From: Eledone cirrhosa
Lineage: Eukaryota
Direction of reading: 5' to 3'
Assembly (NCBI GenBank): GCA_964016885.1
Contig: OZ024750.1
Location: 9,982,001 to 10,046,000 of the forward strand
DNA: 64,000 bases
Shown here: positions 17,850 through 37,200 of the stretch, piece by piece
How the letters are laid out: each line of letters begins with the position of its first letter
Position numbering within the stretch: the first letter of the stretch is position 1
Position numbers and translations under genes: made by a program
The notes under the pieces: generated by a model
Told to the model about the DNA's origin: nothing
Databases searched by the model: none
What the model saw: the letters and a program-made list of their open reading frames with translations, nothing else

Positions 17850-18050
17850 TCCCGGGTTCAAACGGAGGTACCCACAGTTAGTAAGGTACTCAATACATTA
17901 GTAAGGTGTAAACATCACGTTTAATAGAGAAATAGATTCTACAGGACTAGAACTGTTTCATTCAAAAGCAATCGTCAGGAAAGCTCTGATGATTTCTTTT
18001 GAATGAAACAGTTCTAGTCCTGTAGAAGCCCTTTCTATATTAAACCTCAT
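17850..18050. ncRNA. Inverted pair of hammerhead-headed short elements (family H1)
   Basis: + copy CTGATGA-tttcttttgaat-GAAA-cag-ttctagtc-ctg-TA-gaagcc; - copy CTGACGA-ttgcttttgaat-GAAA-cag-ttctagtc-ctg-TA-gaa; 42-bp arms 17937-17978 and 17986-18027. Confidence 0.65.
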
Positions 18051-19849
18051 ATGTTTACAAGATGTTGGCATGAGTTGGACGAGACTGTAAGCTGTATTTA
18101 ACGACCCTTCCTGACACCAATTCTTACGAAATACATGATTACATAGTACTTATTCTAAAAAAAAACAAGATACATAGTTATGTCTATCTATATAATATAT
18201 ATACATACACGTGTATATTCTAAATACCAAGATGCATAAAGCTATGTGTATGTATATACATACATACACACACACATATATATATATATATATATATATA
18301 TATATACACACTCTTTCTCAGACTAGCATGTATACACACTTGATAGATGACTTCGTGGCGAACTAGAAATAAAATATATATTAAAAAAAACAGTAACGTA
18401 CTTTCGTATGGAAAGTTTTTTTTTTTTCCAAGTTAAAAATCCAGAAAACTATTGCTTAGCTTATTCTATTAATTACATTTATGTAGAACAAAATTATGAT
18501 TTAATACGGTTTATATAAAGCTAAAGCATTTAAAATAAATTTTCTAAAACTCTAAAAATAATGTTTTAAAATCCTCGACACACCTAGCTACCCTTTGATA
18601 GGCACAAGTGTACCGAGGCACACCAAACGAGGGACACTAATATATATATATATATATATATATATATATATATTATATATATATATATATATATATTTTT
18701 TTTTTTTTTTTTTTTCTGATTTAGGCACAATGCCAGCAATTTGAAAGAGACGGGGAAGTCGATTAAATCGTCCGCAATGCATTACTGGTACTTTATCCCG
18801 TAAGGATGTAAAGCAAAGCTAACCTAGATGACTTCTAAACGACTAGAACTCTTTCATTCTTTCGAAACCAGCAGGAATCTCTTCATGATTTGATACGAAT
18901 GAAACAGTTCTAGTCCTGTAGAAATAATTTCTTATATAAAATATAAATGCTTATTCTCTACTAATGTATTGAGTACTTTATTCCTCTTTGGGATATCAGC
19001 CTTTATATATATATATATATATATATATATATATATATATACACGCAATGGTGGGGATGTCATCCATATCGCTATAATTCAATCGTTTGAATAATTGACA
19101 CCGCGAAACAATTCGAGAAGCTTCAATTTCAATTAAAATGTGTGTGTGTGTATATATATATATATATATATATATATATATATATATATACACACACACA
19201 CACAATAGTGTTTTAGTTTATTACAACACAGAAATATGAACAAGATGGCAGGTATATGGAAAGTAAAAAAATTGTCTGTCTGTGTGTAAGTGCGTGTGTA
19301 TGTGTGTGAATGTAAGTGTGTGTAAGTGCGTATGTATGTTTGGTTTGTTTGTTTCGTCACTAGGATAAGTGAAATCCAAAGATTGATTTTTAGATATTAT
19401 TATATACGCATTCATATAAACATACGCACACTAACAGACATTCAAGCTTATATATTATGCACACATTCTGCTGCATATGTATCTGTGTGTGTATATATAT
19501 ATATATATATATTATTCTATTACGTACACACATATTCAAACACAGACGGTCAGACATAGTTGAATAATTTACTCACATTCATGTATATAATAAACATGTA
19601 TATACATAATATACATGCGCACTCATACATACATATATACAATAGATTCATGTGTAAACAAATGGATCTCCGTCGATTTAAACGACGACTATTTCAATTT
19701 CACGATCAACAGAACGGCCTACTAATTAAATTAGCGTCTAAATATTTCATAAACATGTATACACTTTACGTAATTTTCAGGGACATAAGTTGGCTCTTTG
19801 TATTACGACGGGCTTCCAAACATTCTCCGCTAACCAAAATGAAATTCCC

Positions 19850-34200: not shown

Positions 34201-37200
34201 GCACCAATTCGGATCTAGATGTCGAAACGGCCAGAGCTCAGCCGTCAGGGTCCTGACTCTTTTCCTATATAGGTTTATCTCGGGTTCAATCGGGGGTAAC
34301 CACAGTAAGGTACTCAATACATAGCAGAGTATAAATATTTAATATAGAACTGTTTCATTCAGAACTATTTCATTCAGGAGAAATCATCAGGAAGCCCTAT
34401 ATATATAAACATACAATAGTTTACCTTTTCCTTCTTATTTCTGTCCATTTCTTGAAGGAGTTTTGACTTTTTCCTTTGCGCCATTTCCTCCTTCTCATTG
34501 GCCTGGTTCAACCAACATTCAAAAGCTATCTTGTTTATTCGTTTATTCTCTTCCTCCTTTTCTCTTTCCGCCTGTATTGCCTTTCTCACCTTTTCCTGGA
34601 CTAAAAGTAATTTCTTCCGAACCGCCTCCTTCTGCTTGGCAGTCAGAGCATATGGGGAATAATAAGGGTAAGAAGTTGAGTATGGACGGTTCTTGAGAAT
34701 ATCTAGCGAAGATGGAGTAGAGTTTGTGTAAGCTGTTAGGGGTCGATTATTGTTCACCTCCTGCTGCTTTCTTTTGTCTTTCTTGGGCGACTGTTTCCTC
34801 CCACTACTGACCGGTAGTTTCTTCATCCTGTTTGCCAATGCATTCATGTCGTCTGGAGTAACTACATCAAATCGGCCATCTCGTTCAATGACCATGTCGT
34901 AATTGTTCAAGTCTTCCTCTTGTTTACTTTTGGATCTTCCTTTGGTAAGTTTCTTAAGCTCTAAATAATAAAAATAACAACTATAATTAATAAGTAACTA
35001 TACAATTGACACGAGGTGCAGACATGGCTGCGTGGTCAAGAAATTCTCTTTGCAATAATTCACATATACATATATACTAGAACTGTTTCATTCAAAAGAA
35101 ATCATATGATTTCTTTTGAATGAAACAGTTCTAGTCCTATAGAAGCCATTTCTATTTTAAACTTGATTCATACATACATACACACAGACACACACACATA
35201 TATATATATATATATAGTAATAATAATAAATGTGAAGACTAAAATCTGTTATTTTAATAAATATATATATATATATATATATATATATATATATACGATG
35301 GTCTATTGTAGATTCTGTCTACCAAAATTCCATTCCCGAAACATTGATTGACCTGATGCTATATCAGAAGACACTTTCCCAAAATGCCTTGTAGTCTGAC
35401 TGAAATACAGGTATACAAAATGGCCGACAAGAAAGTAAAACAGAGAGAAATGAAAACCAGCAATGAAATGAAATATTTGCAGTCAGTTGTTTATACATTG
35501 AAGAAATAACCGAATGAGAAAGAACCAATGTTCCAGTAACAAATAAAAAGATAATATTACTAATGAATATCAGACTCAAAGGAATTACTTTCCATGAAAT
35601 ATTCATTCGATAACTTGTAGTATTGATTCTACAAATGAGTTTATGGCTTCTGTAGGATTAGTTCACAATTTAGCAATATTTTCTAATTTCACAAATAAAT
35701 CTTTCAGTTTATGAATTAAATTCTTTTTTTTTTAAGCTGCAAATAAATCATTCAAAATATTCAGATACCTTTTACTTTCATCCAGTTTAATTTTATTGCC
35801 ATCCATTTTATATATCTATAAGATACTTTGCAAATGGTCGTAACAGAGTGAACTTATCTAAAGGCACTGAAAGACCAGGTACTGGTGTTAAACCAAGCAG
35901 TGTGTTAGACTTACCAACAAATTTCATCCCTGCCCATTACACCAATAAGATGTTATGAGATAAAAAACAAAAAAAAAAAACAATACAGACCGTTCCTATC
36001 TAATCTGGTATAATTAGCTGGGCATAAATTCTTTTGGAAATCCCCTTTTTCTTGAGGCTGAATAGAGTTGTTTCCAAGATCTCTGTTATGAGATTGTAAT
36101 GTTTCCTTCATGGTGTTGTTTGAAGATCTTTTATTCACTGTAAATAAATAAATATATATGATGAAGGTGCATGGCTTAGTGGTTAGAGCATTGGGCTTGC
36201 AATCAAAAGGTTGAGTTCAATTCTCAGACCGGGAGATATGTTATTTCCTTGAGCAAGACACTTTATTTCACATTGCTCCAGTTTACTCAGCTGTAGAAAT
36301 GAGATGATAGGACTGGGGTCCCTATCATTCCACTGCAAAGTGGTCGTGCCACGGCAAAAAAGCACCCAGCACTCACTGTAAAGTGGACGTGTAGGCACCA
36401 CAGAAAAAAAAAGCACCCAGCACTCACTATAAATGAGGTTGGTGTTAGGAAGGGCATCCAGGTGTAGAAATCAAGCCAGAATCAGTTCCCGTCCCACTCT
36501 TGCAAGCAGGGAAAAGTGGACGTAAAATGATGATGATGATGATGTGTGTGTGTATAGACATATATATATACACACACACATGCACATTTACATATATATA
36601 ACCCATGTTAGCGTAGAAGATGGACGTTAAACGATGATGATGACATATGCATATATGTGTGTGTGTGTGTGTGTGCATATATACATATATATGATGGCTG
36701 CCCCCTTGTTATCGAGTATGGCCATTGCACGATATAACATTAATAATTATCAATTAATGCTATCGTACAATGCCTGTGCGTGAAGATTTTTTTTTAAAGT
36801 GAGGAAGGACTGTGCACTGAGCCAATCCCACTCTCTGAGCGACAGTAGCTATAACCCGAAAACCTTTCGATTGCAAAGCCAATGCTCTAACCACGAAGCC
36901 ATATACATACATACATACACATGCAAACATGTATATACATATTTACACATTTTGGGATGGCCGTTGACTTTTATGAGTTCTTCCGCCCTTTGTCAGGTTT
37001 TGTTTTTTCTCCTGCAGGATGTCTAAAATTACCCTCCTCACACACACATATATATATATATATAAATGTATACATATATACAGTACTGACTTGGTCTTGT
37101 AGACTTGTCCAACCCTTGCCAGCAGGGAAGGTGGATGTTAAACAATGATGACATTGTCTTCTTCTTCTTCATCATCATCCATTTAAGCCCTTTTCCATGC

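Follow-up and report, generated by a model that had tools for sequence, protein, structure and literature searches.

The 64-kb window of the Eledone cirrhosa genome analyzed here (the window being the whole stretch of DNA under study) contains seven stretches of a short hammerhead-bearing repeat, H1, at four loci (Table 1). All seven, first reported in a preliminary description of the sequence, are confirmed and are mutually linked by BLASTN, with E values between 5e-20 and 1e-4, the latter for the weakest arm. As had been described, inverted dimers, in the form of head-to-head pairs, are present at three of the four loci; that description is corrected here in that the arms are unequal, the junctions are variable and long copies extend further upstream. 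As also noted earlier, the window contains no fully intact copy, and intact copies are found elsewhere in the genome (e.g. L131).

Table 1. Positions of H1 copies and of other features in the window.
Feature	Position	Strand	Remarks
Pair 1, long (tailed) arm	17849..17985	-	From first stem I base to C run and (TA)n; ~65-nt tail
Pair 1, short arm	17986..18059	+	CUGAUGA at start; predicted cleavage after 18024; without tail
Pair 2, short arm, decayed	18829..18877	-	BLASTN within window
Pair 2, long arm, decayed, then (TA)n	18885..18990	+	BLASTN and pLTR comparison
Single tailed copy within (TA)n	34271..34397	-	Listed as C10:10016380-10016401 in G-start junction matches
Pair 3, truncated arm	35076..35105	-	Centre of perfect palindrome lies within core
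Pair 3, short arm, without tail	35106..35168	+	BLASTN within window
Further short repeat	13132-13255; 16035-16111; 34158-34260		Often adjoins H1 copies genome-wide
Open frames resembling exons of one host gene	1142-1615; 5230-5832; 34374-34997; 38978-39499	-	No Pfam match
3' portion of a different Penelope-like family	45450-46700	-	GIY-YIG frame (Pfam E 7e-5), then two differing hammerhead-like cores, at 45866 and 45563
LINE fragments	37479-38185; 61799-63775		In part inverted relative to one another; presumably RTE-like
Two minisatellite arrays	21228-21993; 30292-31111		40-nt unit

The long arm of pair 1 retains a hammerhead with one core change and an altered stem I 3' strand, and its 5' end would coincide with a transcription start. 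It is 80-82% identical to the pseudo-LTR (pLTR) of the long elements L122, L230 and L231, identities between window arms and long-element pLTRs being 76-82% overall. The junction of pair 1 falls in the same class as 26 loci of the junction survey, and folding of positions 17907-18059 gives a single hairpin of -83.3 kcal/mol. In the single copy, stem I is preceded by an extra untemplated G (34397), and an internal rearrangement has removed stem III and the cleavage site. A tblastn search of the window for ORF pieces of the parent family gave no match at E<=1e-3. The further short repeat of the window has a GTATTGAGTAC-like tail motif in common with H1. This motif may serve both repeats as a signal for the start of reverse transcription or for protein binding, and may point to nested targeting. 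Relative to the putative host gene, the H1 copies would be intronic, one of them lying ~25 nt past a likely splice donor near 34423.

H1 has the layout previously proposed, in the order CUGAUGA, stem II, GAAA, stem III, GUA and stem I, and its identity as a type I hammerhead is upheld by the presence of the core elements CUGANGA, GAAA and UH together with three stems. Stem II comprises 3 bp closed by a U-U apposition, and stem III 4 bp. The R10.1-Y11.1 closing pair of stem II is absent, with U-U in 141/162 arms at the place where G-C is usual. Variation is unrestricted in loop II and almost absent from stems II and III. The covariation of stems I and III that the preliminary description proposed to look for is present in stem I, with about two events between subfamilies (among 66 long arms, outer pair G-C in 32 vs A-U in 28, third pair C-G in 43 vs A-U in 12). 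An Infernal/Rfam check, also proposed there, gave no hammerhead match in the 64-kb window at E<=5, and folding of the monomer was no better than that of shuffled sequences in five H1 copies (z -0.35 to +1.11). Minimal hammerheads of Penelope-like elements (PLEs) are reported to cleave poorly in vitro (PMC4209133), and the hammerhead of Anolis Poseidon to depend on protein (PMC11167929). H1 copies disperse thousands of long RNA hairpins over the genome.

Genome-wide (3.0 Gb), an H1 30-mer has 5,881 exact matches, a 26-place core pattern covering all sister families 24,101, and the H1 tail pattern 15,319, while the reversed control of each has 0, and thus the recurrence of H1 is not due to chance. 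Monomers and inverted dimers were counted in a positional sample comprising 92 of the first 100 listed 30-mer places (three second arms and the last five places left out), from which nine were dropped (six duplicates, two second arms, one neighbour) and 14 more collapsed for common flanks, leaving 69 loci that include two duplicate-looking pairs (L012/L013 and L133/L135). An initial genome search, with a query reaching across the junction, favored one junction class and is excluded from this count. An inverted partner is present at 47 of the 69 loci (four of them low-scoring), and the remaining 22 are single; since H1 copies are related to each other, these counts do not represent independent events. 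The anchor arm enters a microsatellite at 58/69 loci, in 49 of those (TA)n. One decayed copy (L061) and its relatives ride in a larger repeat or duplication, with flanks common to 20 of the 92 sampled places.

Rather than being an element in its own right, H1 is the hammerhead and tail of the pseudo-LTR of Penelope-like retrotransposons. Two single copies, L073 and L084, have upstream sequence in common, which led to 40 long copies with 90-100% identity. These are organized in the order TATA box, hammerhead, tail, ATG, ORF with reverse transcriptase (RT) and GIY-YIG, and again hammerhead at the 3' end, and the RT and GIY-YIG frames lie on the hammerhead strand. Hammerhead and tail are continuous into the ORF start in 5 of 12 loci examined (L217, L218, L221, L222, L227), and also in L286. 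L230 is complete, with a hammerhead, a tail, an ATG 181 nt from stem I, a 713-aa ORF, and a second hammerhead with a short end. On the ORF strand, its two hammerheads are located at 6278 and 312. Its ORF has 1,404 homologs of similar length at ~40% identity. The RT of this ORF was undetected by Pfam (RVT_1) and PDB sequence searches; the protein model (pLDDT 91) has telomerase RT (TERT) as its best fold-search match (E 3e-9). In the parent elements, the C-terminal GIY-YIG gives Pfam E values of 9e-4 and 0.012, both short of the curated cut-off but falling at the expected position, and the homolog P0054 passes. The inverted 5' copy and one-sided tail are also seen in the parent (L121-L125, L229). 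The N-terminus and CNC linker of the parent are, we presume, like those of the Penelope/Poseidon clade. Thus, of the earlier proposals, the link to Penelope is supported by autonomous families that carry the hammerhead and tail, and that of an independent non-autonomous element is not supported, since H1 is continuous with an RT ORF as the pLTR end of these families.

Several further features of the sister families were noted. A protein search gave 136 matches, many with open frames of ~758 codons. These matches and L230 belong to a sister family with loop TAAT/TAAA that also has near-identical copies; given its open frames and near-identical copies, it was probably active recently. Its 3' UTR contains kilobases of (TA)/(CA) microsatellite. 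In L098, L104, L108 and L118, the 3' UTR microsatellite is followed, ~300 nt before stem I, by a motif that resembles a branch point and a splice acceptor and suggests an intron within the element. For the exact subfamily of the window, upstream-extended copies and a tail running into the ORF leader (L241) are present, and an intact ORF was not found among the loci examined.

Continuity with the RT-GIY-YIG ORF refutes a reading of H1 as a MITE or other DNA transposon whose TIRs resemble a hammerhead by chance, to which we give hardly any credence. The inverted arms in TA targets would fit such an element (target duplications are unreadable within (TA)n), but the arms are unequal, 22/69 loci are single and stem I covaries. 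The preliminary description had named a TIR as the finding that would overturn its reading, and the unequal arms, single copies and ORF continuity show that H1 is not one.

A short non-autonomous master of SINE or retrozyme type, or a master dimer, could instead be re-amplified as a unit by Penelope proteins. Short copies do vastly outnumber long ones (in the window subfamily, 590 exact cores vs 17 extended upstream to about -51, the longer pattern missing some copies through mutation), one junction recurs, and no intact ORF is tied to the window's exact subfamily. However, upstream-extended copies are present in every subfamily inspected, the short copies have no TATA box, and the copies are mostly not tandem arrays, unlike retrozymes. 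The recurring junction, which joins an arm from stem I to an arm from the core, spans many loop variants, and its 26 loci, which include loci from the junction-biased search, have the tail on the first arm in 13 cases, on the second in nine, on neither in four and on both in none. The occurrence of both tail polarities and many loop variants shows that this junction forms anew rather than from one master; a master dimer as its source was rejected on these grounds, and we consider a short master of any kind quite improbable.

The 5' ends of H1 copies cluster where stem I begins, which is ~45 nt before the predicted cleavage site. Of 47 anchor arms that reach -40, 41 stop by -46, and just 5/69 go beyond -48 (this core-anchored sample being blind to ends 3' of -24 on the anchor arm). 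In a tail-anchored sample of 30 loci, nine extend upstream, ten end at the boundary and 11 end further in; 3-4 of these 11 come to within 4 nt of the cleavage site. Starts at or near the cleavage site are seen in L290, L302 and L306 among these 30 loci, and in 1/47 inverted arms. Because so few ends (3-4/30) lie near the cleavage site, any role of cleaved RNA as a template is minor at most, and the earlier term 'ribozyme-processed' does not suit copies whose ends gather ~45 nt upstream of the site rather than at it.

In long arms, a TATAAA box precedes the first purine of stem I by exactly 30 nt in 47/75, lies at -29 to -31 in 57/75, and is missing in 16. This spacing holds over at least six loop subfamilies with differing spacer sequence, with a pyrimidine-purine step at -1/+1. 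For G-start copies, the base before the copy after a TATA flank is G in 48, T in 25, A in 4 and C in 2 (79 of 98 matches, with a junction pattern that leaves out joins lacking an extra base after A), a G excess over the background (G:A:C 108:140:36) with p 1e-12. Among host-flanked G-start copies inspected (30 loci), G is present in 14/23, and in long copies a G occupies that position in 1/68. In the A-start sister family, G outnumbers A by 25 to 5 among 100 of 123 matches listed; 4/7 inspected G cases derive from an inverted arm, leaving 3/15, at background level. An untemplated G has been taken as a cap signature for L1 (PMC6425141, PMC4038843), and by analogy that on G-start H1 copies may be one too, although slippage on a G run could also produce it. 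From the TATA spacing and the sequence of the boundary, we infer that the boundary represents a capped start, the initial purine of stem I being the first base transcribed. For a rotifer pLTR, a TATA box and an Inr-like motif have been noted (PMC8557442, PMC3846280).

An alternative with the same parent is that the copies are ordinary 5' truncations of read-through RNA, arising through RT stalling, cDNA fold-back or a splice junction at the 5' edge of the hammerhead. In D. virilis, Penelope has a TATA-less promoter and an intron that ends at helix I (PMC2377424, PMC4209133), so that a splice junction could also set the H1 boundary, and a pyrimidine-AG dinucleotide lies near the boundary in A-start families; no upstream exon is common to the junctions inspected, however. 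In this class, 5'-truncated insertions normally come with an inverted copy (PMC8557442), and exact stem I homology is used at some junctions (L290, L293), but the monomer folds weakly, and neither the TATA box at -30 nor the untemplated G is explained by truncation. We therefore regard this alternative as unlikely.

The arms of H1 pairs follow a rule. Counted from the predicted cleavage site, their 3' ends fall either at about +20 to +33 or at about +85 to +98, and 37 of the 47 pairs consist of one short and one long arm, with three short-short pairs, seven that include an intermediate arm, and no long-long pair (p about 4e-5 for the 40 clear pairs). Both arms have the same loop II variant (within one base) in 17/18 readable pairs, against a shuffled mean of 5.9, and the spacers between cores are mostly 4-17 nt (16/18 pairs among 100 core-pattern places listed). 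The earlier suggestion of fold-back or template switching at insertion is retained insofar as the pairs are made at insertion, but simple fold-back fits only some junctions (L290, L293). The other suggestion, that copies survive when the ribozyme is sequestered in a hairpin, fails to predict the short-long rule, the untemplated G or the TATA spacing. Head-to-head pairs could likewise come from self-priming on antisense RNA or cDNA templates, discussed for rotifer Penelope elements (PMC3846280), which would account for perfect palindromic junctions (window 35105/35106; L021). Most junctions are asymmetric with variable spacers, however, and the cap-like G at sense 5' ends and the short-long rule would not follow from antisense self-priming, making it a very improbable source of the pairs.

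The reading that we favor, and think reasonably probable on the strength of these sequence patterns, is that two reverse transcriptions from two internal starts run off the 5' end of a capped mRNA and are then joined. The short H1 copies are likely to be such run-off ('strong-stop') cDNAs, inserted singly or head-to-head. Transcription of the Penelope-like mRNA would begin with the first stem I purine, the element protein would nick both strands of a (TA)n target, and reverse transcription would be primed at two internal sites bounding the tail. On mRNA from the TATA promoter, each cDNA would extend for about 70 nt or about 135 nt before meeting the cap, and joining of the two run-off cDNAs via 0-3 nt of microhomology would give one short and one long arm; the template may be one RNA or two. 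With uncleaved RNA as the template, ribozyme cleavage would not be needed, and run-off followed by joining would explain the inverted ends of Penelope-like elements. For Anolis Poseidon, two internal RT starts bounding the tail, extension of both target strands and dispensability of cleavage have been reported in vitro (PMC11167929), and by analogy the two 3' ends of H1 arms may correspond to these two start sites.

A broader proposal is that PLEs in general make strong-stop cDNA from their own capped mRNA, that every insertion is doubly primed from the starts bounding the tail, and that minimal head-to-head copies record this step; we put this forward tentatively, as being somewhat short of probable. 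If true, the inverted pLTR and the one-sided tail would share one mechanism with the 'solo' hammerheads dispersed through animal genomes, the tens of thousands of minimal copies here would record the strong-stop step directly, and the very first nucleotide transcribed would already belong to the ribozyme. Earlier publications cover the element class with its hammerhead, the inverted copy, and pairs of hammerheads on opposite strands. Run-off or strong-stop PLE copies and the short-long rule were not found in the literature searched, in which subscription papers are sparsely covered; the supplements of PMC11167929 and PMC4209133 may bear on the former. Octopus repeat annotation names Penelope families, with ribozymes unmentioned in the sections drawn on here (PMC13282606). 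The origin of PLE inverted ends and one-sided tails is stated as open (PMC8557442, PMC3846280, PMC11167929), the inversion in EN+ PLEs having been ascribed to antisense self-priming or left unexplained in the accounts cited (PMC8557442, PMC3846280). H1 copies supply large-number genomic constraints on PLE ends, in the form of the short-long rule, the fixed 5' boundary and the cap-like G, and what looks like a hammerhead SINE or MITE could in many cases be a by-product of an autonomous element.

Among known systems, H1 and its parent resemble Poseidon of Anolis carolinensis (PAc) in having a pLTR hammerhead just before the ORF, two ends that bound the tail, AT-rich targets and an RT followed by GIY-YIG, and an uncleaved RNA template, reported for PAc, may apply to H1 as well (PMC11167929). 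Unlike PAc, in which the tail lies inside the ORF, the H1 parent has a tail of ~65 nt that precedes the ATG, which in L230 is 181 nt away from stem I, and run-off copies or short-long pairs are not described for PAc in the parts of PMC11167929 on which this comparison is based. EN+ PLEs have an inverted 5'-truncated copy, a 30-40 bp tail at one end, a microsatellite bias and solo pLTRs (PMC8557442, PMC3846280). H1 and its parent resemble them in the inverted 5' copy, one-sided tail, microsatellite bias and solo pLTRs but, compared with EN+ PLEs as described in the sections cited, the minimal form dominates here and both arms halt at one boundary (PMC8557442, PMC3846280). Minimal PLE hammerheads are dispersed in thousands from truncated PLEs, with opposite-strand pairs 100-700 bp apart and a palindromic loop 3 (PMC4209133). 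H1 is similar in its thousands of dispersed motifs, opposite-strand pairs and palindromic loop 3, and differs in its 3-bp stem II with U-U in place of the conserved G10.1-C11.1, its 4-bp stem III, and its paired arms that are usually <20 nt apart (PMC4209133). Head-to-tail units bounded by the cleavage site, as in retrozymes, were not found for H1, its rare tandems (e.g. L039) being without a core. Like animal non-LTR retrozymes, H1 is short, has a type I hammerhead and originates from a PLE pLTR; by contrast, retrozymes are head-to-tail arrays cut at the ribozyme, whereas H1 copies occur singly or head-to-head and extend across the cleavage site (bioRxiv 10.64898/2026.07.22.740005).
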